Shown here piece after piece: positions 2,757 through 62,721 of a stretch of DNA of 64,000 bases. This DNA comes from an uncultured Clostridia bacterium. GTDB lineage: Bacteria > Bacillota > Clostridia > UMGS1883. The stretch lies in the NCBI GenBank assembly GCA_947630975.1, contig CANRJP010000001.1, forward strand, positions 18,712-82,711, written 5' to 3'. Both the position numbers and the translations under genes were made by a program. Every line of letters starts with the position of its first letter. Position 1 is the first letter of the stretch. The notes below the pieces were generated by a model that saw only the letters and a list, made by a program, of their open reading frames with translations, had not been told where the DNA came from and searched no databases.

Positions 2757-5700
2757 TCACGCCAGCCTCGGGGCCGGACGCTTCCGGCTCATGCTGTCAA
2801 ACTCGTCCGCTATCGCCTCTTTCACCCATTCCTTGACCCTGCGGGCCAAATCCCGATCGCTTGAGCTTCCGCCGTTGATCGTGAGGTTGAATGTGGGCGA
2901 ATAGTTATTTGTCTCGGACGAGCTGCTGTTCACGGTGGAATAGCCGCCGCCGGACTCCGGCGTGTAGTTCTGGGAATATGGGATAGCCATCTCGCCGGCG
3001 GCTTGAGCCGTATCTCGCATTTGCGGCATGGTTTTTTCCATACCGATTATGCCGCCCTCGATGAGGAATTGGCCTTTTTCCTGCCATACCTTGGAGGGCG
3101 AGCTGATTTTTTGTACCTTGTTGAACTCCGCGTTGACTGCGGTGGCCACGCCGCGAGCCGCTGCCACGGCGGCGGCCTTTCGGGAGTTTATACCGTTGAC
3201 AAGGCCGTTTATCATGTTGGCCCCGGCGGAGGAAAGATTTACCGCGCTGACGGCGGCTATTATCTGGCTTAGTCCGTTTTGCACCGCCGACAGGCAGGCC
3301 GCCATGCCGCTTGTAACGGACGTGGTTATCTCGGTCAGCTTGGCCGTTACCGTCTGCGAGGCCGTGCCCATGGCCGTATCGAAGACCTGCGGAATCTGCC
3401 CCACGGCGGTCTGGGTCTCGGCGACAAAGCTGTTCACCGCGCCGCTCGCCGCCGCAAGTCCGCTCTGGTCTACGGTCAGGTTTACGGCCACATCCTGCGC
3501 TCCGCCCAACTCCGTAAGTCCGGCGTTGAAGCCGCTGCTGAAGTTCATGGCCGAGTTTGTGCCCACGGAAGCAAAGTCTATTCCCATATCGCCAACGTCA
3601 ACGCTGGGAATATTTAAGTCGCCAAAAGTTCCGGAAAGAGAAGATTTCAGGTCGTTGGCCGACGCCTCAACAGAACCCTTGCCATTTTCAATTCCTTTTG
3701 CTACTCCGCTCGAAATTTTTTCACCGGCGGCCTCTGCGACTCCTCCGTCCAGCGAATCCGCGAATCCGCTTAGTCCGTCCGCCGCCTTTTTGAATACGCC
3801 GCCCACTTTATCGCCTATCCAGCTAAGAGCGCTCTTTATGCCGCTGAGTATTTTTTGCAGCGGTTCACAGTTCTTTACCCAGTCCACTATGCCGCTGATA
3901 AATTCTCCTATTTTGCCGACCACCCAGCCGATTATTCGTCCGAGGGAGTCGATGATTGTGCGGAAGGTCTCGCTTTTGTTGTAAGCGATTATAAGCACGG
4001 CGACAAGAGCGACAATGCTGGCTACTATCCGTGTTATGGGGCAAAGCAGCAGGCCCGAGTTAAGCGCCCACTGCGCGGCCGTTTCTATGGCCGTAGCTGC
4101 GGCGGCCAGTTTCTGAGCCGTTACAACAGCCATTATCGAGCCCGCCACAAAACCAAGAATAGGCAAAATGCTGTCCATGTTTTTGCCGAGGAACGCGAAA
4201 ACGCCCGAGGCCAGATTTAGCAGACCGCCGATCAGCGGCCCGGCGGCGGATATTATACCGCCGACAAAATCTCTGACGCCCGAGGCGAAGCCGACTATAC
4301 CGTCAAGAACGTTCTCAGCGGCATTTTGAATTGACGAAAACATTCCCTCCGGCATGGGCTGGCCCACTATCATTTCATACATTCCGCTGACAGCGGTCAT
4401 AACCACATCTTTTATCGCGGATAATAGTTCCGGCCCGTTTGCCTTGATAACGGCGGCGCCGGATTTAAACATCATAACCAGGCCGTTCGCAAAAGACTTT
4501 GCCAATGTGGGCGCAAGTTTTATCAGCGATTTGCCGAGAACAGATATTGCCATTGCCGCGAAATTCATAAAATAAGGCAAATACTTATTCAGTCCGGCTA
4601 TGCCTTTATCGGCCAAAGTTTCGACAGTATTTGCAATATCGCCAATATCCGAATCCTGGAAGCCGTCGCTCATAATATCGTTTAACGACGATAGCGTATC
4701 CGTAAACATTCCCAATAGGGAAACATATTTGCCTGAAAATACCGCGCCGATTTTTTCCTTGAGATCGCCGAACAAATTGTTCATCTGGGCCAGTTTGCCG
4801 GTAGGAGTATTGACAAAGCTTTCGGCCATTCCGCCCCAGCTTTCACCGATAATTTCCTGAATGGCGGCCACTTTTTCCATATCGGTGCCGGTTGTCAGGA
4901 TCTTTTTCTGCGCTTTAGTGACGACAAATCCCTTTTTGGTCATGGCGTCATAAGCGCCGGTGGTCATTTTAGCCAGATTTGTAGTGTAATCGACGATTTC
5001 CTGAGTGGAAAGAGCCGTTCCCCCGCTCATACCGGCGGCGTAATCGGTCACGGTTTTCATGAGGCCTTTAATCGCTTCGGGGTCGGTGAAGTAGGTCGCG
5101 GCTTCGGCGGCCGCGCCGATCATGGCCTCATCGCCGTACATGGTGACTTTTTGCAGTTCTCCGGCATAGTCTTTTATGCTGTTTATTGCCTCATCGGATA
5201 TCCCCATATTTTTAGCGGTGGTCGCCAACTGTGTTTCCATTGCCGTTTGTTCTCCCAGCACCGTCATACAGTTGTTTATCCCCGCTATTGCCGCCGCTGT
5301 GCCGCCGGTCAGGGCGCCTATGCCGACTTTTGCCGCCGTCTTTATTCCCTTGCCGAGAGCGCCGGACACCTTTTTTATCCCTGATGTCAGCTTTTCAAAT
5401 TTCTGGCTTGCCGCCTCCTTTAAAGCGACGGCCCAGTCCTTGGTTTTACTCCAGGCCTCCTTGATAGAGGAACCGACACCTTTAAATTTTTTCCCGCTGT
5501 CTTTCACTTTTTCGGAGGATTGATTTAATCCTCCCAGCTCTTCCTTGGCTTTGTCGGCTTCTTTTGCAATATTCTCAATGCCTTTTGCTGCCCCTTTTAT
5601 TCCTTCAACGCCCGCCGCGGCCTTCTTCGCCGTGTCTTTTATTTTGTCAAGGCCGCCTTCGGCTCCGGTGACAGAGGCCTTCAGCTTATCCATTTCAGCC

Positions 5701-5774
5701 GTGACTTTCGACAGCGGATTGTCGGCTATCTCAAAGCTGATTTTGACAACGTCCTCGCGTACAACGTTCGCCAT
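2757..5774 (-). CDS. phage tail tape measure protein
   Basis: 1005-aa ORF, coiled-coil/Ala-Gly-rich. Contains a hydrophobic TM-like stretch (ITRIVASIVALVAVLIIAY). Sits between the tail assembly chaperone and the LysM/baseplate genes. Confidence 0.8.
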   Translation of the reverse strand: MANVVREDVVKISFEIADNPLSKVTAEMDKLKASVTGAEGGLDKIKDTAKKAAAGVEGIKGAAKGIENIAKEADKAKEELGGLNQSSEKVKDSGKKFKGVGSSIKEAWSKTKDWAVALKEAASQKFEKLTSGIKKVSGALGKGIKTAAKVGIGALTGGTAAAIAGINNCMTVLGEQTAMETQLATTAKNMGISDEAINSIKDYAGELQKVTMYGDEAMIGAAAEAATYFTDPEAIKGLMKTVTDYAAGMSGGTALSTQEIVDYTTNLAKMTTGAYDAMTKKGFVVTKAQKKILTTGTDMEKVAAIQEIIGESWGGMAESFVNTPTGKLAQMNNLFGDLKEKIGAVFSGKYVSLLGMFTDTLSSLNDIMSDGFQDSDIGDIANTVETLADKGIAGLNKYLPYFMNFAAMAISVLGKSLIKLAPTLAKSFANGLVMMFKSGAAVIKANGPELLSAIKDVVMTAVSGMYEMIVGQPMPEGMFSSIQNAAENVLDGIVGFASGVRDFVGGIISAAGPLIGGLLNLASGVFAFLGKNMDSILPILGFVAGSIMAVVTAQKLAAAATAIETAAQWALNSGLLLCPITRIVASIVALVAVLIIAYNKSETFRTIIDSLGRIIGWVVGKIGEFISGIVDWVKNCEPLQKILSGIKSALSWIGDKVGGVFKKAADGLSGFADSLDGGVAEAAGEKISSGVAKGIENGKGSVEASANDLKSSLSGTFGDLNIPSVDVGDMGIDFASVGTNSAMNFSSGFNAGLTELGGAQDVAVNLTVDQSGLAAASGAVNSFVAETQTAVGQIPQVFDTAMGTASQTVTAKLTEITTSVTSGMAACLSAVQNGLSQIIAAVSAVNLSSAGANMINGLVNGINSRKAAAVAAARGVATAVNAEFNKVQKISSPSKVWQEKGQFLIEGGIIGMEKTMPQMRDTAQAAGEMAIPYSQNYTPESGGGYSTVNSSSSETNNYSPTFNLTINGGSSSDRDLARRVKEWVKEAIADEFDSMSRKRPAPRLA

Positions 5775-6238: not shown

Positions 6239-6284
6239 GATTGCATATCTCCTTTTAATTTTAATTTTTTAGATAACGGTGAGT

Positions 6285-6607
6285 GGGCTGTAAAAAAACT
6301 TACTATGTAATCTGGAGGCACGGGGGCCGGTCGAAAAAATCGTGCAGAACGGACGAAAATCAGCTCTCGCAGGCGACAGGCGAAGCCTGCCGCCGAGAAA
6401 GCCCTCCCGACGGCGTACATAGGTACGCCAAGGGTGATTTTCGTTCGTAGTTCAAGGGCATAAAAATGAGAAAATTCGCTCGCAAGGGCGAATTTTTTAC
6501 ATTATGCAATTATTTTTATATTTATCGACTTATATTATAACACTCATATTTGCCTTAAATAAGTCATTCAGCCCTTGAACGGTCTGCGCGACTTTTTTTA
6601 CGGCCCC
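6285..6607. repeat. MITE-like TIR element, copy 1 (~323 bp, non-coding)
   Basis: Ends gggctgtaaaaaaa… and …agcccttgaacggtctgcgcgactttttttacggcccc. Its reverse complement aligns over ~180 bp plus ~60 bp at the far end with 45677-46216, and its ends match the 36-bp TIRs of 59937-60130. Fills the gap between the tail tube stop (6618) and chaperone start (6238). Confidence 0.75.
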
Positions 6608-6617
6608 CTCAATTCGG

Positions 6618-9554: not shown

Positions 9555-9736
9555 GGGGATTTCATCTCCTAATTCCTAATTCTCCTGCCCGCCCTGCGGG
9601 TCACTAAAGGCTCACCGCTTACGGGTTCGCATTTTATGCGACAGTTTAAATGTATCAGGTCGCAAGTTAGTCGCAAGATTATAACCTACCCATCGACCAA
9701 CCATGACGGGCCCCCACTATTCCTAATTCCTCATTC

Positions 9737-10108
9737 CTAATTCCTAATTTTCCTCCATCCGCTTCGGGCCGTGCGGAACTTCACGTCCGATACGATGTCG
9801 CCGCCCAGCAGGCTTTTCAGCAGCTCCCACAGCAGGGCCGTCCTGTCCCTGTCAGAAAACGACTGGGACAGGTGGCCGCTTATGCTTTCGCTGGTCACGC
9901 CCGCCGTTACGCCCATGATTTCCACAAACTTCACCGCGAACAGCCGGACTCTGGCGGGAAGCTCCGCCAGCTCCTCGTCGCTGTTCAGGTCGAATTTAAG
10001 CCGTGTGTTCTCCAGCACGTACTGAAGGGCGGCCTCCACCATGAGCACGGTCTCCGGCGTTATGGGGTCAAGACCCAGATTTAAGGCCTTGACCTGCTCC
10101 TCGGTCAC
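9737..10108 (-). CDS. phage head-tail connector/adaptor (gp6-like)
   Basis: 123-aa ORF directly downstream of the major capsid gene (4-bp overlap). Size and position are typical of a head-tail adaptor. Confidence 0.5.
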   Translation of the reverse strand: MTEEQVKALNLGLDPITPETVLMVEAALQYVLENTRLKFDLNSDEELAELPARVRLFAVKFVEIMGVTAGVTSESISGHLSQSFSDRDRTALLWELLKSLLGGDIVSDVKFRTARSGWRKIRN

Positions 10109-12922: not shown

Positions 12923-13128
12923 ATTTTCCTCCGTGCAAAAAGCACGCTGCTAAACGCATCAAAAAAGCACTCTCGAAGTAAGAGTGCTTAATTATAGCTA
13001 AAATGGACTTTGGCGGGCGTCGCGTCTCCCGCATCTCTCGGGTTTCCCCTGTCATGCCATCGGCGTGTGGTCGCAACGAAATTTACCACCTCAAAGTCCA
13101 TCTTTAGCTCACTTATATTATACCACAA

Positions 13129-15367: not shown

Positions 15368-16819
15368 TCACTCCAGACTGATTTCGCCCTCTTCCTCGCC
15401 GGTCCCGTCTGTCAGGGCGGGTATTCCTTCCGTCTCGGCCTCGGCCATTTCCAGCGCGTAGTCCACGTCGTCTATTTCCGGCACGGCTATGCCCCAGGCC
15501 AGAGACTTGGGCAGGCCCGCCGCCATGAGCGCCTGAGCCGCCTGAGCGTTGCTGAGTGTGTCCATGGGGAAGTTGCGTTTGAAGTCCATGGTTATCTGCA
15601 AGGGGTCAACCGCGATTTGCTTTAAAGTCCAGAAGCCCGCCAGCAGCCGCCACATATGGGTCGCCGCGTCCATCATCTTCGCCTGGAACATTCCGCACTT
15701 GGTTTCAAGGCCGTGAAGCTTGAATTTTAACGAGACGCCGCTGGCCGTGCCGAAGGTTTCGTCGCTGAGGTCCGGCGTCTTGCTGAAGCGGTAGATGTTC
15801 CCCTCGAGCCGGTCAAGCTGGTGCTCGGCAAAGCTGTCATTCACGTCCTTTGTCAGAAAGTATATCTTCCGCTCCGAGGTGGCTCCCGTGCCGGGAATGG
15901 AAAAGGCTCCGCTTCTGCGGGCCTCGTCGAGGGTTTCGTCGTCCGGACTTAAGCCCTGGAACACCATATAGGCGTGGGCGAAGCTCTCCACGTCGTTTAT
16001 GTTGTCGCTGAGCACCTTTTCGTAGGCGTCTATCTCGCTGAGAACCTTTTCCGCGTCCCCGATGCGCTCGTTGTTGTTTTCCACCGCCTGAAGGGGACAG
16101 CCGCCGAACAAGTGCATCCGGCTTTCAATCAGCTTCAGGTCGCCGAGCCCGCCCTCGTAGACGTGGTACATCTCGCTGTCGTAAAACTCGGCGTGCCAGG
16201 TCTTTGCCCCTCCGGCCAGCTCGGTATAATAATACCTTACGGCATATTCCGGCTCGGACAGGCGGGAGCTTGACAGGCTCACCGTCTCCCATGCCGGCAC
16301 CGGCATAACCCTCGCCTCGCCCTCGGGGTCAACATAGAACAGCCGCCCCGCGTATCCGGATATGGCGGCCATCTTCGTTATCTCCATGTCCACGCCGAAC
16401 ATATTGTTTCGCGTGACGAAATCGGTCACGGCTTTTGTAGCCCTGTCCACCGCCGCCGCTCCGCCGGTGACGGCCTCCGCCTCGGCGGTTCTGCTGTAAC
16501 CGTAGGCGATGGGCTTTCCGGCGAAATATCCCGTCTTGAAATCTACTATCTCGCCGACGAAATCGGTCTTGACCTTGTTGTTGATGGGGTCCGTCTCGTG
16601 GAACCGGGGCTCCCGCCCGTCGATGGGAGAGCTGCCGTCAAGGCCCATGTAACGGTTGTACATCTCGCGGCTGTATTTGGCGTTGAGCTTGTGCTTGCGG
16701 ATGATTTTTCCCAGCAGCGCCGGGGATATGGGCCCCCGGCCAAGCTCGCCCAGCTCCGCCTTTATCTCGGCCAGCTCCGCCGAATAATCAGGATATACGT
16801 TTGTTTTGTTTCTTCCCAT
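15368..16819 (-). CDS. phage portal protein, SPP1 gp6-like
   Basis: 483 aa, located between terminase large and the MuF protein. Length and sequence are consistent with SPP1-family portals. Confidence 0.8.
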   Translation of the reverse strand: MGRNKTNVYPDYSAELAEIKAELGELGRGPISPALLGKIIRKHKLNAKYSREMYNRYMGLDGSSPIDGREPRFHETDPINNKVKTDFVGEIVDFKTGYFAGKPIAYGYSRTAEAEAVTGGAAAVDRATKAVTDFVTRNNMFGVDMEITKMAAISGYAGRLFYVDPEGEARVMPVPAWETVSLSSSRLSEPEYAVRYYYTELAGGAKTWHAEFYDSEMYHVYEGGLGDLKLIESRMHLFGGCPLQAVENNNERIGDAEKVLSEIDAYEKVLSDNINDVESFAHAYMVFQGLSPDDETLDEARRSGAFSIPGTGATSERKIYFLTKDVNDSFAEHQLDRLEGNIYRFSKTPDLSDETFGTASGVSLKFKLHGLETKCGMFQAKMMDAATHMWRLLAGFWTLKQIAVDPLQITMDFKRNFPMDTLSNAQAAQALMAAGLPKSLAWGIAVPEIDDVDYALEMAEAETEGIPALTDGTGEEEGEISLE

Positions 16820-16945: not shown

Positions 16946-18178
16946 TTACAGCCTCTTTCCCGCCTGAATACGGGCCTCGAGCATATCGCCCTCCACCGCG
17001 TAACGCAGGGCGTCCATCAGATGGTTGTCGGCGTCCACCGGCCGGGCCAGTGTGTTGCCGTATTTGTCCTCCTCCCAGCGGTACTGGGATATTTCTTTCT
17101 TGAAGTTTTCACAGCCGCTGTCCACGATGATTTCATAGTCCAGCAGCCACCGTATGCCACGGTTCACGCTGTCGGGGCCCTTCACCGCCGGAATGGCGTT
17201 GACGCCGTTGTCCGCCAGAAAGTCAATGGTCTTTGGGTCGGCGCTGTCGCAGGTTATGTAATTCCGCCCGGCGAACTCACCGGCCACCCTCAGCAGCTCG
17301 GCGTCGGACATTCCCGACCGGTACACCTCGCCGAGGATATATATCTTTTTCCGCTTGCGGTCGATGTGCAGCTTGATAAGGGCGTTGGGATCGGCGGCAT
17401 AGCCGAAGTCGCAGCCGAACCGGAGCCTGTCGAACTCCGCCTCCCGGCCGCTCAGATCCTCGACCTTCCAGTTGTCGAAGATGAGGCCCTTAGCCACGCC
17501 CCAGTTCCCCAGCCCCGCCACCTCGTAGCGCTTGGGCCGATTTTTCTTCATGTCCTCGAACAGCTGGCGGTCCCGGTCGTCCAGCCATTCGTTGCACATA
17601 TAGTTTGTGGTCAGGGCGAGGATGTCCGGGCTTACCGTGTCGAAAAACCGCCGCTTCAGCCAGTGGAGCTCGTTCCACGGGTTGAAGGTTATGGTGATCT
17701 GCTTGAACAGTCCCGGCGGTGCCGCGCCGCGTATGGATTCGTCGAGGGTGTTGAAGTCCTCCTCGTCCATTATCTCATAGCCTTCCTCGATCCACATCCA
17801 GCACAAAACGCCCACATCGACGGTTATGGACGTGACCTTGAGCGGGTCGTCAAGGCCCCGAAAATAAATCTTTTGTCCGGTGGGAAGGTAGGTCATTTCC
17901 AACGGGTTAAGCGTCACCCGCCACAGATGCTCGACGCCGAAGCGCCGGATGGCCCACCGAAGCTCGGTAAAGCAGGAGTTTTTCAGCGTGGCCGCCGTCC
18001 GGCGCACAACGAGAGTGTTGGCCTCGGGGTACTTCATCATGCTGAAAATATACCACAGAGCCGCCGTCTTGCTCTTTTTGCTGGCGCGGCTGCCCTTTAC
18101 CACACGGTAGCGGCCCTTGAAGTCCCAAAAGCGCTTGTAGCCGCCGCCCACGATTTCGCTGAGCCTGAGCGGGGGCAT
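16946..18178 (-). CDS. terminase large subunit, PBSX (XtmB) family
   Basis: 410 aa. N-terminal ATPase region (…GSRASKKSKTAALW…) and C-terminal nuclease acidic residues. Follows the small subunit with overlapping start and stop. Confidence 0.85.
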   Translation of the reverse strand: MPPLRLSEIVGGGYKRFWDFKGRYRVVKGSRASKKSKTAALWYIFSMMKYPEANTLVVRRTAATLKNSCFTELRWAIRRFGVEHLWRVTLNPLEMTYLPTGQKIYFRGLDDPLKVTSITVDVGVLCWMWIEEGYEIMDEEDFNTLDESIRGAAPPGLFKQITITFNPWNELHWLKRRFFDTVSPDILALTTNYMCNEWLDDRDRQLFEDMKKNRPKRYEVAGLGNWGVAKGLIFDNWKVEDLSGREAEFDRLRFGCDFGYAADPNALIKLHIDRKRKKIYILGEVYRSGMSDAELLRVAGEFAGRNYITCDSADPKTIDFLADNGVNAIPAVKGPDSVNRGIRWLLDYEIIVDSGCENFKKEISQYRWEEDKYGNTLARPVDADNHLMDALRYAVEGDMLEARIQAGKRL

Positions 18179-20781: not shown

Positions 20782-22974
20782 CTATTGCGATATTCGGGTA
20801 ACATTGCCCTTTTTGTCTCTTTGAAGGAAGCCGGATTCATCAATGTGAGTTCTTACGGTGTTGCCGGACTTGCTGCCGCAATATTCCATAATGTCTTTCA
20901 TTTTAGCTACACCGTTTTCGTCCTTCAAGGCTTCAAAGGCGTTGTTAAGGGTCTCATTCCACTCGTCCTGCTTGCTTTTCTTTTTGGCGGGAGCTTTCCG
21001 GCTGCCGCGCCATTGTTTGTCCTCTTCGGGCTCGACGTCCTGGAGTATACCGTCGCCGTCCATTCGGTGAATAGGGTACTCAAACCACAGGTTCACGGGC
21101 TGAAATTTGGGATATTCCCGCAGGGTTCCCTCCACCCGCCAGGCGGTGAGGATTTTGGCCGCTCTCCGGGCCTCGTCCACGGCGCGGTCAAGCTCCATTT
21201 TTTCGGCAAGGCCCAGCCCTTCGCCGCACATCCGGAGAAGCTTCTCGGAGTTGTATCTGTCCTCGGGGGCCACCTCCCGCCCGCGGAGGGCGCGGAGACA
21301 GGCCTTGCACACGGCCCGGTTTTCCTGACGGGCCGTCATGTTCTCGTCCAGCTCCAATTCAATCAGGTCAAGCAGGGCGTCGGGGTCGCGGGCGAACACG
21401 CCGCTGCCGCTGGCGCGGTCCATGCTGCGCTTGGCGGCCTGGGCGCCCTTGCTGTGATGGTGGCAGTATATCACCGCGCAGCCCAGCTCGGCGGCCACCT
21501 TGTCAAACTGATTGCAGAAGTTCGCCATCTGGTCGGCGCTGTTTTCGTCGCCGGTTATGACCTTGTAGATGGGGTCAATGACGATGGCTATGTAATTCTT
21601 ACGGGCCGCCCGGCGGATCAGCTTCGGAGCCAGCCTGTCCATGGGTACGGCCTTGCCCCGAAGGTTCCATATATCTATGTTGCCAAGGTTGTCGGGCCGC
21701 CAGCCAAGAGCCGTGTACACGTCCTTGAAGCGGTGCAGGCAGCTGGCCCGGTCAAGCTCCAGATTAACGTACATCACCCGTCCCCGGGCGCAGTCGAAGC
21801 CGAACCACTGCCGCCCCTCGGCTATGGCGCAGCATAATTCAATGAGGGCGTAGCTCTTGCCCGCCTTGCTTGGCCCGGCCAGCAGCATCTTGTGTCCCTG
21901 ACGGAGAACCCCGTCGATGAGGGGCGGACTGAGGGGCGGCATTTCGTCCCACACGTCCGCCAGACCCTCGGGGTTGGGCAGGTCGTCGCTGACGTCGTCT
22001 ATCCAGTCCCGCCACTCGTCCCAACCGCTTTTGCCGATGTTGGTGGCAAGCAGATACTGCTTTTTGCCCTTGCGGGTCACGCCGGGGAGACGGGACAGGC
22101 GGGAGGGATTGCGGTTCTGTGTGTCGGGGTCGAGACCGTTCTTTTTGCACACGGAATACAGATAGTCCACCCGGTGCTTGTACTCCTTGTAATCGGCGGC
22201 GTCCACCCGCACGATGGCGTGGAGGCTTTTGCCGCCGCTGTACACCAGCGCCGCCACAGGCAGCTCCAGCTCCCGTATTATGGCGTTCTGCCGCGCGAGG
22301 TCAAGGCTGTCGCTCTCCACCAGAGCGAAGCGGAACTCGGTCACATTGTCGTTTTTCACACCCTTGCCGTCAAGGGGGTTGAAGCGCACCCAGGCTCCGG
22401 CGTCGGGGTCGTAATCCCCCAGAACCGCGCCTATGTCGCCCTTGCACCGTGACAGCTCCTGTATCAGCTTACCCGCCGTCCGGTCATAAACGCCCTTGGT
22501 GGGCACCGTCCGGCCCTCGCTGACATAGCTGCGCGTCACATAGCCCACGCACTCCTCGGCCTCGAACAGGGCCTCGAGGTAGGCGATTATCTGTTTGGCC
22601 GGTTCCCATTGGTCGGGGATTTCCAGCTCACGGCCCTCGACCCAGTTTTTGTCCACTATGGCGGGGCCGTCCTCCGCCGAAATAACATCGTCCCAGTCCA
22701 GCTCACGGCCTTCCCCGCTGAAGGGAACCCAGCCGTTTTCCTTTGCCAGCTGCACTATGGTGCCGCCGGTTACCGGATTGGAGGCTCCGTTGAAGCCTTT
22801 CCACTTTTTTTCGCACTCTCCGGTATGATAACGGGCAGCGTCACGCCTGCTCCATTCTTCCCATACCTCCACGCCCAGGCCCTCTTCCTTCAGGGCCATC
22901 CCAACGTTGAGCCATGCGGTGTAGTCCAGTGCTGACGGATCGATGTATTTCAGCAGTTCCTTGTAATCGGTCAT
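20782..22974 (-). CDS. phage replication protein: primase-polymerase N-terminal region plus P-loop ATPase/helicase
   Basis: 730 aa with a Walker A motif (LLAGPSKAGKSYAL) in the C-terminal half and a prim-pol-like N-terminus. The adjacent iterons support a replication role. Confidence 0.7.
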   Translation of the reverse strand: MTDYKELLKYIDPSALDYTAWLNVGMALKEEGLGVEVWEEWSRRDAARYHTGECEKKWKGFNGASNPVTGGTIVQLAKENGWVPFSGEGRELDWDDVISAEDGPAIVDKNWVEGRELEIPDQWEPAKQIIAYLEALFEAEECVGYVTRSYVSEGRTVPTKGVYDRTAGKLIQELSRCKGDIGAVLGDYDPDAGAWVRFNPLDGKGVKNDNVTEFRFALVESDSLDLARQNAIIRELELPVAALVYSGGKSLHAIVRVDAADYKEYKHRVDYLYSVCKKNGLDPDTQNRNPSRLSRLPGVTRKGKKQYLLATNIGKSGWDEWRDWIDDVSDDLPNPEGLADVWDEMPPLSPPLIDGVLRQGHKMLLAGPSKAGKSYALIELCCAIAEGRQWFGFDCARGRVMYVNLELDRASCLHRFKDVYTALGWRPDNLGNIDIWNLRGKAVPMDRLAPKLIRRAARKNYIAIVIDPIYKVITGDENSADQMANFCNQFDKVAAELGCAVIYCHHHSKGAQAAKRSMDRASGSGVFARDPDALLDLIELELDENMTARQENRAVCKACLRALRGREVAPEDRYNSEKLLRMCGEGLGLAEKMELDRAVDEARRAAKILTAWRVEGTLREYPKFQPVNLWFEYPIHRMDGDGILQDVEPEEDKQWRGSRKAPAKKKSKQDEWNETLNNAFEALKDENGVAKMKDIMEYCGSKSGNTVRTHIDESGFLQRDKKGNVTRISQ

Positions 22975-24582
22975 TTATATTACCTCCGGCACATAACGGG
23001 ACGGCACAATTCCCATTGGCAGACGCCAGTTGTTGGCGGCGATGCGGTTCATCATTCTGCTTGCGGCGTCAAAGCTCCACGTGCCCACATGAACAAAGCC
23101 GCGCTGTTCCAGATACCTTATCTGCCTTGGCGTCGCAAGCTTCAAGACGCTGCGCTTTATCAGCCGGTCGATGAGCATCGACGCTTTACCGGCGTTGTCG
23201 ATTTCTCCGGCGTAAATGCCGAATTTTTCCAATATCTGTATCTGTTTTTCGCTGGCGGGGGCCATTTCCCAGCCGAAGGCGGGCACGTAATTTGCGAGAT
23301 CCTCGGCCTGTATACTAAGCTCGAATTGAAGCGGGTCTACCAGCTTCCGCTTTCGATTTTTCATTTCGTCCAAGACCTTTGCCAGTGATTCTTCACGGGC
23401 GGCGACGACGTCGCTCTCCGCCTGCTTTTCGGCGTCCTCTATATCGAACACCTCGCCGGGGGCGGCGGCCATGTTTTCGGTCATCTTCTTCGCCACCTCC
23501 GCGCTTTCGGCGATAAGGCAGGCGGGACGGCAAAGCTCGTGCCGCTCGGTGTGCCACAAAAAGTCCAGCAAAAGCAGCTCCGACTTTCCGGGCGCCAGCC
23601 GTGTGCCACGGCCCACCATCTGGGAGTACAGGCCCCGCACCTTCGTGGGCCGCAGCACCACGACGCAGTCCACCGACGGGCAGTCCCAGCCCTCGGTGAG
23701 GAGCATGGAATTACACAGCACGTCATACTCTCCCGCCTCGAAGGCCGCTATGATGGCCCCGCGGTCGGAGCTCTCGCCGTTGACCTCGGCGGCCCGCAGT
23801 CCCTTTTCGTTCAATATGTCCCTGAATTTCCGTGATGTGGCTATCAGGGGCAGGAAAACCACCGTCTTTCTGCCCTCGCAGTAGTTCAGCATCTCGTCGG
23901 CAATCTGGTACAGATAGGGGTCGAGGGCGCTGCCCACGTCCGAAGCCTTAAAGTCGCCCTGCTGTATTCCCACGCCGCTCAGGTCCAGCTGAAGGGGGAT
24001 CGTCACGGCCTTGATGGGCGAGAGCCAGCCCTCTTTTATGGCCCGGGGCAGGGTGTATTCGTATGCCAGACTGTCGAACACCTGACCCAGGTTCTTTTTG
24101 TCGCCCCGGTCGGGAGTGGCGGTGACGCCCAGCACCCTCGCCTCGGGGAAGTGGCCGAGGATTTCCCTGTAACCGTCCGACAGGGCGTGGTGTGCCTCGT
24201 CAACGACGATGGTGTTAAAGTAATCGGCGGGAAACCGTTTCAGCCTTGAGGGCCGCTGCAGGGTCTGTACGCTGCCCACCGTGACCCTGCTCCACGTGTC
24301 GTCAAGACAGCTCTGCTCCGCCTTTTCCACCGAGGGGACGAGGCCGGTAACCTTGCGGAGCTTGTCGGCGGCCTGAGAGAGCAGCTCGCCCCTGTGGGCC
24401 AGCATCAGACAGCGGTCGCCCTCCCGCACCCTGTCCTCGACCACCTTGGAGAACACCACCGTCTTTCCTGTGCCGGTGGGCAGCACCAGCAGCGTGCGGC
24501 GGTTGCCCATGCCCCAGTGATTATGTATGCTCTCCCGGGCTTCCTGCTGGTAGGGGCGCAGCTCCATATTTGACGCGCCCAT
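22975..24582 (-). CDS. SF2 DEAD/DEAH-box DNA helicase (phage)
   Basis: Motifs LVLPTGTGKT (I), VVDEAHH (II, DEAH) and VTATPDR (III). Confidence 0.75.
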   Translation of the reverse strand: MGASNMELRPYQQEARESIHNHWGMGNRRTLLVLPTGTGKTVVFSKVVEDRVREGDRCLMLAHRGELLSQAADKLRKVTGLVPSVEKAEQSCLDDTWSRVTVGSVQTLQRPSRLKRFPADYFNTIVVDEAHHALSDGYREILGHFPEARVLGVTATPDRGDKKNLGQVFDSLAYEYTLPRAIKEGWLSPIKAVTIPLQLDLSGVGIQQGDFKASDVGSALDPYLYQIADEMLNYCEGRKTVVFLPLIATSRKFRDILNEKGLRAAEVNGESSDRGAIIAAFEAGEYDVLCNSMLLTEGWDCPSVDCVVVLRPTKVRGLYSQMVGRGTRLAPGKSELLLLDFLWHTERHELCRPACLIAESAEVAKKMTENMAAAPGEVFDIEDAEKQAESDVVAAREESLAKVLDEMKNRKRKLVDPLQFELSIQAEDLANYVPAFGWEMAPASEKQIQILEKFGIYAGEIDNAGKASMLIDRLIKRSVLKLATPRQIRYLEQRGFVHVGTWSFDAASRMMNRIAANNWRLPMGIVPSRYVPEVI

Positions 24583-29175: not shown

Positions 29176-29504
29176 AAATATTTCTCCTCTTGACTTTTCC
29201 TTTTTTGTATGTTACAATGAAATCACAGATCATTTTAACCCTTTCAAACTTGGTCTTGTCCTCGAAGGTTGCACCCCTTCGGGGACTTTTTTGATTTGAT
29301 TTGATAACTTCTGTCCGTCGCTGCGGGTCACTAAAGGCTCGCCGTCGTCGCCGCAAGCTCGGTATCGCTTGTTCCGATTTAAAAAATCGGAACGTGGCTT
29401 ACCTCGCTGCGTCTCCTCTTCCCCAAAAACAACTTCGTTGTTTTCGGGGGCCCCTTGAGAGGGAAACACGCTTGCGGTGGATGAGGTGTAGGCCGCAAGG
29501 CCGT

Positions 29505-36105: not shown

Positions 36106-36269
36106 ATATTAGCAAAATAAAAAGGAGCCCCGGTGTTGGCGCACCGAAGCTCCGAGTGGTACATGATACAAAGAGGAGGATCACATACCAGAACCATATC
36201 TATTGTATCATGTACGCTCCGTTTTGTCAATATTTTTTCAATTTTTTCAACAAAAGGAGTGTATTTTTT

Positions 36270-37304
36270 ATGGCAAATGCAAAAAAATTGCCCAGTGGGA
36301 GCTGGAGCGTGAATATCTATATCGGCAAGGACAAGAACGGTAAGCGCAAGTACAAGCGTTTTACCGGCGCCGACAAGCGCAAGGTCGAGCGGGAGGCCGC
36401 CGCCTATGCCGATGAGCACCGTGGCGAGGTCAGCACCGACACCTTCGGCTATGCGGCGCGGCAGTATATTGAAAATCGAAAAAACATTCTTTCCCCGTCA
36501 ACGATATTAAATTACAACAGGATTTACAGGAACTACCTTCAGCAGTGGGAATGTGTCGCGATTTCAGATATTGGGTCAAAGGCAATCCAACAACTGGTAA
36601 ATAACAAGGCCACGGAGCTGTCGCCCAAAACGATCCGTAATATATACGGTTTTATTACGGCGGTCATTTATTCGGTCGATCCATACGCAAGAATAAAGGT
36701 TGCTCTGCCGGCGCCGGTTAAGACATTTCGGGAACTGCCGCCGCCCAAAGATGTCATTAAGGCGGTCATTGGGACCAAGTGCGAGCTTCCGGCACTTCTC
36801 GCCCTCTGGGAAAGTCTGAGGATGTCGGAAATTCGCGGGTTAAGGTTCGGTGATCTGGCAGGCAATATCATAACCGTGCGCAACGTAAAGGTAAAGGGCG
36901 AAGATGGCGACGTCCTCAAGAGCCGTACAAAGAATTATGACAGCACTCGGCGGCTGGCTTTGCCCCAATATATAATGGACCTTATCCCGAGGGATAAGGA
37001 GCCTACTGATTTTATAGTGCCGTATAGTGCCCGCCGTATATATGGTTGGTTTCAGGACGCGCTTGACGCTGCCAGACTGCCGCACATGAGTTTCCACGAT
37101 CTCCGGCATATGTACGCGTCTATTGCGCTAAGTATCGGCATACCGGACAAATATGCGATGGAGAGCGGCGGGTGGCGAAGCCCTCATGTTTTAAAGGGAG
37201 TGTACCAAGAAACTTTCAGCGCCGAGCGCCAAGCCGCCGACGCGAAAATGAACAATCATATTTACACCTTGATAGATATTGCCCGGCGTGAAAATGCAAC
37301 ATGA
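36270..37304 (+). CDS. int: tyrosine recombinase/phage integrase
   Basis: C-terminal …LRFGDL…HDLRHMYASIALSIGIPDKYAMESGGW… contains the R…HxxR…Y catalytic signature. Start at MANAKK after RBS AAAAGGAG. Confidence 0.85.
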   Translation: MANAKKLPSGSWSVNIYIGKDKNGKRKYKRFTGADKRKVEREAAAYADEHRGEVSTDTFGYAARQYIENRKNILSPSTILNYNRIYRNYLQQWECVAISDIGSKAIQQLVNNKATELSPKTIRNIYGFITAVIYSVDPYARIKVALPAPVKTFRELPPPKDVIKAVIGTKCELPALLALWESLRMSEIRGLRFGDLAGNIITVRNVKVKGEDGDVLKSRTKNYDSTRRLALPQYIMDLIPRDKEPTDFIVPYSARRIYGWFQDALDAARLPHMSFHDLRHMYASIALSIGIPDKYAMESGGWRSPHVLKGVYQETFSAERQAADAKMNNHIYTLIDIARRENAT

Positions 37305-44894: not shown

Positions 44895-45674
44895 ATGACC
44901 AACCATCCCGAACTGCCGCAGAATGTTCTGCCCCATGTCACATATATAGCCTGTCAAAAGCCCCGCGACAAGAGCTGGGTCCTTGACCGATGGCTGGATC
45001 ACTGGGCCATAATAATCGTTCACGAGGGCTCCATAAGCTGCGAGATAGACGGCGTGATAAACACCGTCAACAGCGGCGAGGTCTTTCTTATCGCGCCCGG
45101 AGTTTGGCGCAAGGCCTGGGTCAATTCCGACAGATTTATAATTTCCGCTCTGGACTTTCATGCGCCGCGCTCGACCTCGCCCACCAAAACGGCAATTTTC
45201 AAGCCCTCCAGCATGAACGCTTTGATGGATATTCTGCATAAAATGAACTATATATACATATCGCGTCCCACCGGCTTCCAGATGGATCTGGACGGAATGA
45301 TGGTGCTCTTCCTGTCCCATCTGTTCAACAAGAGCGAGCTGAAAAGCTCTCACCCGGCGGTGGAAAAGATGAAGCGCTACATAATCGAATACTATATGCA
45401 CCCCATCACCGCCCGTGAGCTGGCGAACCTTGTCAATCTTGACCCCGCCTACTGCGGCAAGCTGTTCAAGGCCGAACAGAACTGCTCCATACCCCAGTAT
45501 ATCAACAGAGTGCGCATAAAGGTGGCCTGCAACCTGCTGGATCAGAGCGGCTATTCGCTGGACGAGATCGCGTCCATGTGCGGCTTTTGCGACAAATTCC
45601 ACCTGGGTAAAAATTTCAAGGCGGTCATGGGCGTGTCGCCGAAGAACTACGCGCGGATGAAGGCCGCGGAGTGA
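44895..45674 (+). CDS. AraC-family transcriptional regulator (cupin + HTH)
   Basis: C-terminal AraC-type HTH pair (…ARELANLVNLDPAYCGKLFK…; …LDEIASMCGFCDKFHLGKNFKAVMGVSPKNYAR). Confidence 0.8.
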   Translation: MTNHPELPQNVLPHVTYIACQKPRDKSWVLDRWLDHWAIIIVHEGSISCEIDGVINTVNSGEVFLIAPGVWRKAWVNSDRFIISALDFHAPRSTSPTKTAIFKPSSMNALMDILHKMNYIYISRPTGFQMDLDGMMVLFLSHLFNKSELKSSHPAVEKMKRYIIEYYMHPITARELANLVNLDPAYCGKLFKAEQNCSIPQYINRVRIKVACNLLDQSGYSLDEIASMCGFCDKFHLGKNFKAVMGVSPKNYARMKAAE

Positions 45675-45676
45675 AA

Positions 45677-46216
45677 GCTGTATGTAGAAAAGTCGCGCAG
45701 ATCGTTCAAGGGTTGAATGACTTAATTTAAGGCAAATTTGAATGTTATGTAACCAATCATTAAAAATAAAATAATTGCATAATGTAGAAAATTCGCCCTT
45801 ACGAGCGAATTTTCTTATTTTTATGCCCTTGAACTACGAACGAAAATCACCCTCGGCGGCGTCGGGGCAAAGCCCGTCTATGCTCCGACATTTTTTCAAA
45901 AATGCCGTCGCACGAGGGCTTGCCCCTCCTTCTTCGCAAAAGGTCACGCGGCGCTCCGGCTATTCGGGCGGATAAGCCGCCCTCATTACGCCTGCGCTTG
46001 CTACCAACCTTTTGCGAGTTTTACGCCACCACTCCCCACAAACAACAAAGTTGTTTGTGGGGAAAAGGAGGAGCAGCCGAACGAGCCAAACGATGACTTT
46101 TTTGCAAAGCATAAAAAGTCGCCGCAAGCGAAGGGAGGCTTGCGACGACGCCGTTCTGCACGATTTTTTCGACCGACCCCGCGCTTCCAGGCTACAGAGT
46201 GAGTTTTTTTCTATCC
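45677..46216. repeat. MITE-like TIR element, copy 2 (~540 bp, inverted relative to copy 1)
   Basis: Both ends align with the reverse complement of copy 1. The longer, divergent middle contains the hairpin ccccacaaacaac-aaa-gttgtttgtgggg. Lies between the convergent araC-family and nth genes. Confidence 0.7.
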
Positions 46217-46229
46217 ATAATTAATTTTT

Positions 46230-46871
46230 TTAATTACCGTTCCCGGCCGTTTCGCATATTTCTCTGGCGGGGCAAATCTCGCACTTGGGACGTCGGGCGT
46301 CGCAGAGCTCCCGTCCATGGATAACCAGCCGGTGGCAGAAATCCGACTGCTTTTCCCTTGGGATCAGCGTTTCCACATCAAATTCCACCTTGGTCGGGTC
46401 GGTCTCCTTTGTAAGTCCCACCCGCTTGAGTATACGTTTGGCGTGAGTGTCTATGACCATGCCGCCCTTGTGGAACACGTCGCCCAAAATCAGATTGGCG
46501 GTTTTGCGCCCCACGCCCGGCAGACTGAGCAGATCCTCCATGGTGTCGGGCACCTTGCCGCCGTACACGTCAATAAGACGGCGGCAGCAGCCTATTATAT
46601 TTTTCGCCTTATTGTGATAAAAGCCCGTGGGTTTAATGTCCTGCTCCAGCTCACTCAGGTCGGCGCCGGCATAAGCGTAAACGTCGGGATATTTCGGAAA
46701 AAGCGTCCGTGTGACTATATTCACTCTGGCGTCGGTACACTGAGCCGCCAGTTGGACGGAAATCAGAAGCTGAAGAGGATCCTCACACTCCAGCGAGCAC
46801 ACCGCGTCGGGATAGGTCTCCTCCATAATTTTCACAAATTTGTCCGCAAGCTCCTGTCTTTTCATTTTCAA
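46230..46871 (-). CDS. nth: endonuclease III
   Basis: HhH-GPD motif (LPGVGRKTANLIL) and C-terminal [4Fe-4S] cluster CDARRPKCEICPAREIC. Confidence 0.9.
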   Translation of the reverse strand: MKMKRQELADKFVKIMEETYPDAVCSLECEDPLQLLISVQLAAQCTDARVNIVTRTLFPKYPDVYAYAGADLSELEQDIKPTGFYHNKAKNIIGCCRRLIDVYGGKVPDTMEDLLSLPGVGRKTANLILGDVFHKGGMVIDTHAKRILKRVGLTKETDPTKVEFDVETLIPREKQSDFCHRLVIHGRELCDARRPKCEICPAREICETAGNGN

Positions 46872-55050: not shown

Positions 55051-55126
55051 GCCGGCGTAGCTCAGTTGGTAGAGCAGCTGATTTGTAATCAGCAGGTCGT
55101 AGGTTCGAGTCCTATTGCCGGCTCCA
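55051..55126 (+). tRNA. tRNA-Thr (anticodon TGT)
   Basis: Cloverleaf: acceptor gccggcg/tgccggc, D-arm gctcagttggtagagc, anticodon stem gctga/tcagc with loop ttTGTaa, T-arm gtaggttcgagtcctat, and encoded CCA. Confidence 0.85.
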
Positions 55127-55144: not shown

Positions 55145-55229
55145 GGAGGAGTTCCCGAGCGGCCAAAGGGGGCAGACTGTAAATCTGTTGTCACTGACTT
55201 CGGTGGTCCGAATCCACCCTCCTCCACCA
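55145..55229 (+). tRNA. tRNA-Tyr (anticodon GTA), class II with long variable arm
   Basis: Acceptor ggaggag/ctcctcc, anticodon loop ctGTAaa, long variable arm tgtcactgacttcggtggt, T-arm ggtgg-tccgaat-ccacc, and encoded CCA. Confidence 0.85.
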
Positions 55230-59872: not shown

Positions 59873-59915
59873 TGGACAATTAAATACCGCCCAATAGTAA
59901 AACCAATATTGCACT

Positions 59916-60130
59916 CACTATGTAACCTTGAGGCACGGGGCTGTAAAAAAATGGCGCAGACCGTTCAAGGGCTGTATATGGTTTGATTTAAGGCATTTTA
60001 AGTATTGAAAAATAAAACGTTAAAAGTTAAATAGCTGTCAATTAATGTGGAAAAACCGCCGTTTTTTGAAACGGCGATTTTTCTTTTATCTTATGCCCTT
60101 GAACGGTCTGCGCCATTTTTTTACAGCCCC
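59916..60130. repeat. MITE-like TIR element, copy 3 (minimal ~215-bp unit with perfect 36-bp TIRs)
   Basis: 59937-59972 ggggctgtaaaaaaatggcgcagaccgttcaagggc is the exact reverse complement of 60095-60130. The leader cactatgtaaccttgaggcac matches copy 1. Internal hairpin ccgccgtttttt-gaaacggcg. Located between convergent genes. Confidence 0.8.
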
Positions 60131-61209
60131 TATTCCTCCATCATCTGATTTACGGTGCGTATAATACCGGCGGTTATGCCCTCGGCGACGGCGCTCTGTC
60201 CCTCGGCGCTGACCAGATAGGCCCTGTCGCTGTCGTTGCTGAGATAGGCCGTCTCCACACGCACCGCCGGCTGGCGTGTCATGCGGACGACGTAGAGGGT
60301 GGAGCCGTCATGCACCTGAGCGCCCTGAAGGTCGGAATGAGCCAAAATTTCGTTATATATGTTCTGTGCAAGGATAGTGCCGTACATGGAATCCGGGTCA
60401 TAATAGACCTGGGTTCCGTTGGCGGAGGTGTCGTCAAACGAGTTACAGTGTATGCTTACAAAAACCGCCGGAACGGCGCCGCTGGCGGTGGGACGGTTGG
60501 CTATGTCCACGCGCCCCTGTGACGAGACCTGATAATCGGACTCACGGGTCATTATCACGTTGTATCCCGCCGCCGTCAGATTGTCGCTGACTCTCATGGC
60601 GATGGCGAGCGAAATTTCGTCCTCGGTGACTCCGGCATAGTTCGCTCCGGTGCCGCCGCCGTTCCCCGGGTCGATAACTACCGAGCCGTAGTCAAAGGCG
60701 ACGGTGTTTGTGGTGTCCACCGTGCCGGAGGTGTCCAGATGCACCATATCCGCGCCCATATGGGGATCGTTCATGGTAACGGCGCCCGTGGCTGCATCCC
60801 AGCCCACCTCATAGCCTATCAAGTCGGCTATCTGACGGATGTGAACCACCGTTTTGCCGTCTATTAGCATGGGGGTGGGTTCATCTTCGGGTATAACGCG
60901 GGGCTGACCGTTGACATACAGATTTCTGCCGCCAAGAGTGAAGAGCAGTTCTTTTCCGTCAAAATACACCTTGGCCTGATTTGTTTCGGTAATCCAGACA
61001 ACGGTGCCGCCGATGGCCTCGAAAAATTCTCTGATGGGCACCATGGTGCGCTCGTTGTAAAGAACCGGCGGCTGTTCAAAATATATGGGCCAGCCGTTGA
61101 CGCTGATATTTACGTCGGCGAAGGCCGCCGGAGCGCTCAGTGTCAGGGCCGCCGCCGTCACGGCGGCTATAATTCTTTTCTTTTTCATGTTATCGCTCGA
61201 ACCTTTCAA
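60130..61209 (-). CDS. N-acetylmuramoyl-L-alanine amidase (Amidase_3) with N-terminal stalk domains
   Basis: Signal peptide. Amidase_3 motifs (DPGNGGGTGA…E…IMTRESD…VFVSIHCNSFDD…AYLSND). Confidence 0.75.
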   Translation of the reverse strand: MKGSSDNMKKKRIIAAVTAAALTLSAPAAFADVNISVNGWPIYFEQPPVLYNERTMVPIREFFEAIGGTVVWITETNQAKVYFDGKELLFTLGGRNLYVNGQPRVIPEDEPTPMLIDGKTVVHIRQIADLIGYEVGWDAATGAVTMNDPHMGADMVHLDTSGTVDTTNTVAFDYGSVVIDPGNGGGTGANYAGVTEDEISLAIAMRVSDNLTAAGYNVIMTRESDYQVSSQGRVDIANRPTASGAVPAVFVSIHCNSFDDTSANGTQVYYDPDSMYGTILAQNIYNEILAHSDLQGAQVHDGSTLYVVRMTRQPAVRVETAYLSNDSDRAYLVSAEGQSAVAEGITAGIIRTVNQMMEE

Positions 61210-61212
61210 ACA

Positions 61213-62721
61213 TCAGACAAGACCTCTGTCTTGCATCATCTGCTGAACCGTCTTTATTATACCCGCCGTAATTCCGTTGGCCAGGGCTTCCTGTCCTTCC
61301 TCGCTGGTGAGGTATGCCCGGTCGCTGTCGTTGCTGATAAAGGCCGTTTCGACCAACGCGGCAGGCTGAACGGTCTTGCGAACCACGTACAAATCGGAGC
61401 CGTCTCTTATCCTCGAACCCTTGAGCGTCGTATTGGCCACGTCAGCGTCATATATGTTCTGGGCCAAGATAGTGCCGTAATGGGACTCCGTATGGTAGTA
61501 CACCTGGGTGCCGTTGGTGGATGGATCGTCGAAGGAATTGCAGTGTATGCTGACGAAAACAACGGGTATGGCATTGCCGTTAGTGGGCCGGCTGGCAATA
61601 TCCACCCGGCTTTGAAGAGAGACCTTGACATCCGATGTACGGGTCATAACCACGTTATATCCCGCCGCCGTCAGCTTGTCCCTTACCTTCAAAGCGATGG
61701 CGAGAGTTATGTGATCCTCCATTATGCCGCCGGAGGAAGCGCCGGTATAGCCGCCGTGGCCGGCGTCGATGACTACGGAGCCGTAGTCGTACTCCGCATC
61801 CGTGACCGCGTTGGCGCCGCCTGCGCTTACAATGACGGACGTCTGTTGGGGAATGCTGTCCACAAAGGCCGTGGGGTCAAAATATGCCCCGTTCCGTAAA
61901 TCGTCCGTAGAGGTGACGGCGCCGCCCTGATCCGCCGGAGAGACGGCGATAACTATGCCCGTCTCGGTGCGGCTCAGCAGCACGTTTGGCTGATTTCTGA
62001 CGTCGAGCACTATACGGGCCGTATTTTCATGGTTGGCGCAGCGGACGGAGATAACGTTCGCCCCGTTCACACTGTACTCGCTGTAATCCTCCGTCAGCTT
62101 GGTATTCGGAAAATCCAGCACCACTCTGTCGGGAGAGCCGTAGCGGTTCACCGTGGGCTCCGCCGGACTGTCATAGGCCAGATAAACCATGTCCGCCCTG
62201 TCCACCGTGGCGGGTACGATCTTTGAGATATAACCGCCGCCGAAGGGACTTGTGAGGGTGGCCGCGCCGGAATTTCCGTCCCAGCCAACGTCAAAACCGA
62301 GTTTTTCGGCTATGAGCCGCATGGGAGCCATGAGCTCACCGTTGATCACAATGGGAGCGGGCTCATCGGCGGGCAGGCTGTCGAGCTCGCCGTTCACATA
62401 TATGCTCCGGCTGTCAGCCGTAAGCTGAAGCGTTCTGCCGCCGTAGCTTATCAAAAAACCGTCGGCGCCGCTCAAGCCGGTCACGGAACAGCCCACGGCC
62501 TCGAAAAACTCCCTGACGGGCACAAAGGTCTTTTCGTTCAAAACGATTGGGGGCATTTTATTTGTAACAATTTTTCTTCCGTCAACAAGTATATTTATAT
62601 CGTCCGCACTGTAGCGGTGCGTCTCTCCGCCGTAAACGAGATCCATCTCCCGCCCGAAGGCCGTGGCCGCCGTAAGCAGCATGGCGGCCGTAACAGCGAA
62701 AATCACAGCTAAACGCCGCAT
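61213..62721 (-). CDS. N-acetylmuramoyl-L-alanine amidase (Amidase_3) paralogue with extended stalk region
   Basis: C-terminal half near-identical in motif layout to 60130-61209 (VVFVSIHCNSFDD, MTRTSD, AFISNDSDRAYL). N-terminal half has additional stalk repeats. Confidence 0.75.
   Translation of the reverse strand: MRRLAVIFAVTAAMLLTAATAFGREMDLVYGGETHRYSADDINILVDGRKIVTNKMPPIVLNEKTFVPVREFFEAVGCSVTGLSGADGFLISYGGRTLQLTADSRSIYVNGELDSLPADEPAPIVINGELMAPMRLIAEKLGFDVGWDGNSGAATLTSPFGGGYISKIVPATVDRADMVYLAYDSPAEPTVNRYGSPDRVVLDFPNTKLTEDYSEYSVNGANVISVRCANHENTARIVLDVRNQPNVLLSRTETGIVIAVSPADQGGAVTSTDDLRNGAYFDPTAFVDSIPQQTSVIVSAGGANAVTDAEYDYGSVVIDAGHGGYTGASSGGIMEDHITLAIALKVRDKLTAAGYNVVMTRTSDVKVSLQSRVDIASRPTNGNAIPVVFVSIHCNSFDDPSTNGTQVYYHTESHYGTILAQNIYDADVANTTLKGSRIRDGSDLYVVRKTVQPAALVETAFISNDSDRAYLTSEEGQEALANGITAGIIKTVQQMMQDRGLV

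Follow-up and report, generated by a model that had tools for sequence, protein, structure and literature searches.

Correia elements (CREE/NEMIS) of Neisseria are about 100–155 bp long, carry 26-bp repeats and are flanked by a regular TA duplication. When transcribed, they fold into long hairpins and can serve as terminators or processing sites. REP units, which are 20–40 nt long and associated with RAYT genes, share a conserved head. Repeats of the Tn3 family begin with GGGG. The Tn3-derived TIMEs are non-coding and have 38-bp terminal repeats, AT-rich targets and 5–6-bp duplications (PMC4133298).

The repeat family described here is, like Correia elements, small and non-coding, with inverted ends and many copies near genes. 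Unlike them, it has arms of ~36 nt, a right arm that is split by a cassette slot and lengths of 220–548 nt, and target duplications are mostly absent. As in BOX of Streptococcus pneumoniae and ERIC/IRU of enterobacteria, its organisation is modular, with conserved ends, a variable interior, size classes and conserved structure, but the modules are different and the slot takes units of an unrelated repeat family, D, instead of iterated copies of one box. With REP/BIME it shares a location at gene 3′ ends between convergent or tandem but not divergent genes, a mosaic build and, in most copies, the lack of target duplications. It differs from these in its units of 115–330 nt, in having no conserved GTAG-type head in the alignments and in the absence of a RAYT gene from the sampled DNA. 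Set beside TIMEs by description, the family has comparable ~36-nt arms, a GGGG start, AT-rich flanks and two instances of 6-nt direct repeats. However, most copies lack a duplication, and nothing in TIMEs corresponds to the tail, to the division of the right arm or to the doubling of the right-end box. By analogy, the family could be derived from a Tn3-type element, as TIMEs are. Likened by its features to Correia, BOX/ERIC and REP/BIME, though not known to be related in sequence to any of them, it belongs with the ordinary "junk" repeats of bacteria and is not a new system.

The copy at the centre of this analysis lies in a 64,000-nucleotide stretch of DNA from an uncultured Clostridia bacterium, which was analysed as a whole and is referred to as the window. 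Here, a convergent pair consisting of an araC-like ORF (44895–45674, plus strand, TGA at 45672–45674) and nth (46230–46865, minus strand, stop codon ending at 46230) leaves a 555-nt spacer that holds copy 2 (45677–46216, 540 bp), the longest of the window's three repeat copies. We consider it likely that copy 2 is a decayed, probably immobile long form of a non-coding, MITE-like repeat with inverted ends, where "MITE" is a functional description and not a proven mechanism. The initial annotation had the element begin 3 bp past the AraC stop codon, and 45677 is indeed the third base after that TGA. Searching the window with the family profile (nhmmer) returned exactly three copies, at 6284–6609 (minus strand, copy 1), at 45683–45864 plus 46151–46216 (plus strand, copy 2; E-values of 4e-46 and 1e-12 for the two segments) and at 59911–60132 (copy 3).

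Both ends of copy 2 were originally described as matching copy 1 in inverted orientation. This was confirmed by three repeat blocks, in which 45688–45727 matches 6557–6596 (93% identity), 45759–45858 matches 6426–6525 (92%) and 46151–46180 matches 6323–6352 (97%), all inverted. Likewise, blastn aligned 45688–45858 with 6596–6426 on the opposite strand (89%, E-value of 1e-58) at the left end and 46151–46210 with 6352–6292, also on the opposite strand (87%, E-value of 1e-14), at the right. The blocks shared with copy 3 are weaker, at 72–78% identity, and the pairwise alignment that had been proposed as a check finds the ends of copy 2 homologous to copies 1 and 3 alike. Repeat, blastn and profile matches thereby agree with the proposal that copy 2 is a longer member of one family bounded by inverted repeats.

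Copy 1 (6284–6609, minus strand; nhmmer E-value of 6e-98) is the standard form of 326 nt with an intact Y three-way junction, and sits between two co-directional genes in the tail module of a prophage. This prophage occupies window positions 1–37304 and includes, on the minus strand, genes for a tape measure protein (2757–5774), an SPP1-type portal (15368–16819), a large terminase (16946–18178) and primase/helicase functions (20782–24582), as well as a plus-strand tyrosine integrase (36156–37304). Since copy 1 lies within the tail module, phages may carry the repeat between hosts. Separately, the prophage contains a skipping-rope RNA (RF02924; 51.7 bits, threshold 36.7) at 13005–13099 on the minus strand. 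Ahead of this RNA is an extended -10-like TGGTATAAT, the neighbourhood of which is similar to the AT-rich interior seen in copy 1 (repeat D17). Short repeats of the TTCCT(C/A)A type (repeat families D10 and D11) occur in prophage intergenic regions at 2718–2753, 9567–9600 and 9718–9768.

Copy 3 (59913–60130, plus strand) is a short form without the Y core. Its tail is inverted at 59913–59936, and its inverted repeats, 59937–59972 and 60095–60130, are 36 nt long and 100% complementary. Its last base overlaps by one base the stop codon of the minus-strand gene 60130–61209. The latter and 61213–62721, also on the minus strand, are tandem paralogous amidase_3-type genes (about 70% identity over 300 nt, 1095-nt spacing); a homologue in the sampled locus L091 also precedes an element of the family, in that case a long form. 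The window also has two adjacent plus-strand tRNA genes (55051–55123 and 55145–55226).

The probability that these similarities are due to chance, or that copy 2 arose in assembly, for instance through a chimeric join made at a repeat, is practically nil. In four samples, short-read contigs of the species that the window comes from do end inside copy 2, which could raise this suspicion, but contigs are expected to break there because the element is a repeat. Against an artefact stand E-values within the window down to 1e-58, independent assemblies (L001–L004) that show both junctions of copy 2 again at 99.5–100% identity, and homologous long forms in three other MAG species. These three observations together refute it.

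To take a census of the family, we searched one genome of each species for an 18-mer of the left arm and took 8-kb slices around the loci. The family was found in six rabbit-gut MAGs named "uncultured Clostridia bacterium Lapin-..." and in one Oscillospiraceae MAG. A profile search of these slices identified at least 83 copies or fragments, with at least 7–17 loci per MAG among the matches listed. Matches of the 18-mer in non-Clostridia genomes and in a Hadza MAG were not confirmed by the family profile and are attributed to chance. IMG/VR contained no match to the 18-mer, JGI metagenome contigs contained none to two family-specific words, and phage and plasmid collections gave no blastn match to the family. 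In the collections searched, the family is confined to a narrow clade of gut Clostridia that have not been cultured. Rfam 15 gave no hit on copy 2 at the gathering threshold, and scans of copies 1 and 2 at permissive E-values returned at best 13–23 bits against thresholds of 40–300, which is noise.

From the slices and the window, 48 complete copies were recovered. Most of them (36/48) are of the standard form, 300–336 nt long, with the remainder made up of short forms of about 220–237 nt (3/48), a single 276-nt form (1/48), mid forms of about 401–406 nt (3/48) and long forms of 510–548 nt (5/48), which include copy 2. The census of these slices and the window thus reveals many copies in discrete size classes with conserved ends, in line with the size variation that was first noted.

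All parts of the element follow one order: a left arm (GGGGCYGTAAAAAAATGGCGCAGAYCGTTCAAGGGC, ~36 nt), a variable stretch rich in A and T, the hairpin and its T-run, GCCCTTGAAC, a central slot, CGTTCTGCACGATTTTTTCGGCCGGCCCC and a tail. The right arm is split into an inner half (GCCCTTGAAC) and an outer half (CGTTCTGCACGATTTTTTCGGCCGGCCCC) on either side of the slot, and beyond the outer half come the 23-nt tail and, frequently, another TTTTTTTACAGCCCC box. Short forms have nothing in the slot, 36/48 copies have Y in it, and mid and long forms have D units. Y is a nearly invariant three-way junction; together with the right arm it is about 95% conserved, compared to 70–80% for the left half. Every standard copy retains the hairpin and T-run, with three stem variants that compensate for one another's changes in pairing. 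Two resemblances were dropped. A hammerhead-like core in Y (CUGAU / GAAA) has its motifs off the junction, and the Rfam ribozyme models gave no hit; a Xer/dif-like site, suggested by eye in the AT-rich interior, was set aside since the conserved ATGTRGAAAA belongs to the hairpin as its A-tract.

The consensus fold of the family comprises 55 pairs, of which 99.3% are paired, versus about 35–47% when the partners are slid. Two-sided pair changes number nine, whereas shuffles average 3.1 (0 of 500 reach nine) and the slid control has 1. The C/T of the left box covaries with the G/A of the inner right box in 32/34 scorable standard copies (C-G 17, T-A 15, 2 exceptions), whereas the outer box shows no covariation, and therefore the inner box is the true partner of the left box. 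Among wobble cells on the forward strand, the G-U type outnumbers the A-C type by 54 to 9, with 34 of the 54 coming from one invariant U-G. A plain DNA transposon would require neither this G-U excess nor compensating changes in internal hairpins, and the two hint at selection that may act on a single strand. Polymorphism for a 1-nt indel in the core excludes a conserved reading frame, and judged by its sequence the family is non-coding.

We next considered the position of the elements relative to genes, calling the neighbours with a codon-usage model. The upstream gene is co-oriented and points into the left end of the element in 38/44 cases; the median distance from its stop codon to the element is 5.5 nt, and 31/38 distances lie within −3 to +15 nt. 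Both neighbours could be called at 41 sites; genes converge on the element at 20 of these and are in tandem at 21, and no site is divergent. At the tandem sites, 15 elements are co-oriented and 6 are not (two-sided p about 0.08).

These figures bear on the idea that the repeat acts as structured RNA, a mobile module within the upstream gene's 3′ UTR, where it could for example be a stabiliser, a processing site or a protein platform. The functional core would then be Y, with copy 2 and the other long forms having lost or swapped that function. Helices kept through compensating changes, the forward-strand wobble preference, the 38 of 44 elements co-oriented with a gene that ends just upstream, the 15 to 6 split at tandem sites and the high conservation of the Y core and right arm relative to the left half are all in line with such a module. 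However, the wobble excess stems largely from the one invariant U-G, the orientation bias at tandem sites is weak, and the T-run hairpin is located upstream of Y, so that most read-through should stop before reaching it. In addition, no promoter passes the scan in copy 2, no Rfam family matches, and Y is dispensable, being absent from short, mid and long forms. On balance, we regard the RNA module as quite unlikely.

Returning to the MITE-like reading of copy 2, its parts can be followed along the plus strand. The left arm, GCTGTATGTAGAAAAGTCGCGCAGATCGTTCAAGGG (45677–45712; family consensus GGGGCYGTAAAAAAATGGCGCAGAYCGTTCAAGGGC), has a degenerate outer GGGGCYGT-A7 box. The AT-rich interior, poorly conserved in the alignment of 36 standard copies, follows at 45713–45785; a promoter consensus scan of copy 2 found 0 sites, this interior included. 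The terminator-like hairpin AGAAAATTCGC-CCTTACGA-GCGAATTTTCT, followed by TATTTTTATG, occupies 45786–45825 (11 pairs in the scan). The segment 45825–45858 opens with the inner half of the right arm, GCCCTTGAAC, which pairs with GTTCAAGGG at 45704–45712 as helix 2 of the RNAalifold structure. After it, at 45835–45858, come the first 24 nt of the Y core (TACGAACGAAAATCACCCTCGGCG; Y q1–24 in the module scan), the only part of Y that copy 2 keeps. After the 292 nt of the central insert (45859–46150), the outer half of the right arm, CCGTTCTGCACGATTTTTTCGACCGACCCC (46151–46180; 97% identical to 6323–6352), pairs with the left arm as helix 1, and the 23-nt tail GCGCTTCCAGGCTACAGAGTGAG and then TTTTTTTCTATCC complete the copy in the family alignment (46181–46216). 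The fold of copy 2 has an energy of −198.9 kcal/mol versus −148.6 ± 6.4 in shuffles (z = −7.9).

The outermost boxes of copy 2 are degenerate over ~10 nt at the ends, with GCTGTATGTAGAAAA in place of the family's GGGGCYGTAAAAAAA on the left and TTTTTTTCTATCC in place of TTTTTTTACAGCCCC on the right. With these boxes degenerate, copy 2 is probably decayed and no longer mobile. The nhmmer match on the left opens at 45683, which is model position 11, and the block that has changed relative to the closest relative (45691–46251) starts further inward, as homology to the relative's flank (L103) reaches 45690. It follows that the left boundary may lie anywhere from 45677 to 45691, and that the left arm may begin with ~14 nt of original flank. 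On the right, TTTTTTTCTATCC could be either a degenerate outer box or original flank, the latter being possible because TTTTTTCTATC also occurs in the empty site of L103.

The ~300-bp centre of copy 2 was first described as divergent. This is correct with respect to copies 1 and 3, in which 45859–46150 has no counterpart, but not for other long copies, in which it is conserved, with a mean column identity of about 80% over five copies, each beside different genes. The first part of the insert (45859–46032, plus strand) consists of GC-rich hairpin modules that are related to the D-family array in L080. These modules are 78–87% identical to sequences in L031, L070, L091, L098 and L008, and also match L080 2985–3116 and L090 2415–2581, away from any element of the family. 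The second part (46033–46150, minus strand) is one D-family unit of ~115 nt in reverse orientation. It contains the previously noted hairpin with a 13-bp stem, ccccacaaacaac-aaa-gttgtttgtgggg, which is present at 46034–46062. The long-form centre is a conserved composite of D units that replaces Y, not random filler. As homologous long forms are present at different loci in three other MAG species, the long composite spreads as a unit.

D is a second repeat family, ~115 nt long. Compensating changes are present in its three hairpins, the first of which resembles a terminator. A D unit stands alone at window 29346–29454 (plus strand), outside any element of the first family, and is 81% identical to a unit in L051. 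Inverted and tandem units form an array adjoining a tRNA gene at L080 2650–3320, and further D sites were found at L079 1592–1727 and L090 2414–2581. D units fill the slot of the 401–406-nt forms and interrupt the left arm in two copies. Read in this manner, the size variation of the family is one of nested, modular repeats. One orthologous site in two species (L012 2433–2768 and L067 about 380–768, with the L067 left arm at 731–766), whose flanks are 96% identical, has a standard form in one species and, in the other, a D-filled element with a right end of the short-form type (GGTCTGCACTATTTTTTACAGCCC). These different forms imply turnover or conversion at a single site.

Three ORFs had been placed wholly inside copy 2 and judged probably not to be genes. 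The second part of this claim is upheld, as their frames hit stops or frameshifts in four other long copies. The first part applies to 45775–45975 and 45902–46096; the third, 46012–46224, overruns the end of the element by 8 nt. A protein-coding centre of copy 2 is ruled out by the broken frames in its homologues.

A consensus scan counted five terminator-like sites in the copy 2 region, compared to 1.6 in shuffles. Two of the hairpins have the makeup of intrinsic terminators and are candidates for that role at araC and nth. The plus-strand hairpin, with its stem region at 45786–45815, is ~112 nt past the araC stop codon. The minus-strand hairpin, at 46149–46118 within the D unit, has 12 pairs in the scan, 8 of them G-C, is followed by TTTTTAT and lies ~81 nt past the nth stop codon. 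Because an A-run precedes the stem at 45786–45825, that hairpin may also work in the reverse direction.

To see what the site looks like without the element, we turned to the nearest genome, Lapin-008__bin63, in which AraC is 96% identical, the flanking DNA is 89% identical and the gene order SLH-lgt-araC-nth-SHMT is shared. Its araC-nth spacer is 128 bp long and has ordinary hairpins, and no homology to the family was detected in it, by the profile or otherwise. The site thus differs in the closest relative. The unalignable block measures 561 nt in the window (45691–46251) and 130 nt in the relative, and at its right edge an 11-nt exact T-rich word is common to the end of copy 2 and the L103 spacer (E-value of 0.013). 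The comparison shows gain or loss of the element since the window's lineage and the nearest one split. The event looks like replacement or remodelling of a terminator-bearing spacer, not a clean insertion, and since the spacer is remodelled on both sides, no junction or duplication is readable from this relative. Loss in the relative, or recombinational replacement, is a possible alternative to gain in the window. A more distant relative (L108 4778–4962; AraC 89% identical) has a 185-bp araC-nth spacer with TGCACGTTTTTTACAG, which resembles the right arm of the family and may be a relic; if so, the site may have been occupied ancestrally. At the flank of copy 3, the orthologue of the neighbouring gene has a different downstream neighbour, so there is no clean empty site at that locus. 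In three further comparisons, a relative has ordinary terminator hairpins at the position that the element takes up elsewhere.

How the copies move is indicated in part by their borders. The target-site duplications that had been suggested as a check do not flank copy 2, and a 6-nt direct repeat is present in only 2/22 scorable copies, against 0.13 expected; the rest have 1–4 nt, as in the null. One of the two is the long copy L031, which is flanked on both sides by ATTAAT. The flanks of the elements are A/T-rich. Neither in the window nor across the sampled loci (about 0.5 Mb) does an arm pair enclose a gene, as an autonomous parent would. A Pfam scan of 10 large ORFs, selected from the 63 called in the window, yielded only prophage genes and a phage tyrosine integrase, with no transposase partner. 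When 930 ORFs of the sampled loci, which are a small part of each genome, were searched all against all, no multi-copy family emerged. Of the MITE label originally given to the family, the non-coding nature, inverted ends, many copies and a presence that differs among relatives are retained, while regular duplications and a transposase partner were not found.

These borders also fit a mosaic of palindromes like REP/BIME, which a tyrosine HUH enzyme (RAYT or IS200/IS605-like) would spread as single-stranded DNA or which recombination would exchange between sites, with no DDE transposase involved. Such an origin would agree with the lack of a consistent target-site duplication, with mosaic combinations of hairpin units including the D array of L080 2650–3320, and with the strict location at gene 3′ ends. 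Selection for hairpins, the different fillings at the orthologous site with 96% identical flanks and a spacer that was replaced and not cleanly interrupted point in the same direction. Conversely, the units are far longer than REPs and have no conserved GTAG-type head, and their long inverted-repeat ends, of 36 nt and perfect in copy 3, are like those of DDE-type elements. The two copies with 6-nt direct repeats are above expectation, and the DNA sampled, a small part of each genome, revealed neither a RAYT-like nor an IS200-like gene. We therefore hold a REP/BIME-like mosaic to be unlikely.

Under the favoured MITE-like reading, copies would spread through a transposase that is supplied in trans and recognises the arms, and would persist by landing at gene 3′ ends with terminators of their own. 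These terminators might substitute for the native one and eventually displace it. In copy 2, the hairpin at 45786–45815 (plus strand) would end araC transcripts, and the D hairpin at 46149–46118 (minus strand) would end nth transcripts. The simple MITE reading is weakened by the few duplications, the missing transposase partner and the signs of single-strand selection. A more specialised proposal is that the family is a mobile terminator cassette that homes to the native terminator just past a stop codon and physically replaces it. The nearly invariant Y core and the strand-asymmetric pairing would then be signs of a single-stranded (RNA or DNA) intermediate, or of a role as RNA within the 3′ UTR, and both spread and function would differ from those of cut-and-paste MITEs; we deem this improbable.

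For annotation, our results mean that the three ORFs in 45775–46224 should not be called genes and that the araC-nth spacer should be recorded as a repeat. Short-read assemblies of this clade are expected to break at elements of the family. More broadly, the family is an example of a modular intergenic repeat whose slot takes varied cargo, a second repeat family included. Its elements occupy the usual sites of terminators, where relatives have ordinary ones. If terminator replacement and single-strand selection are true, the family would provide a model of how selfish repeats join gene 3′ ends.
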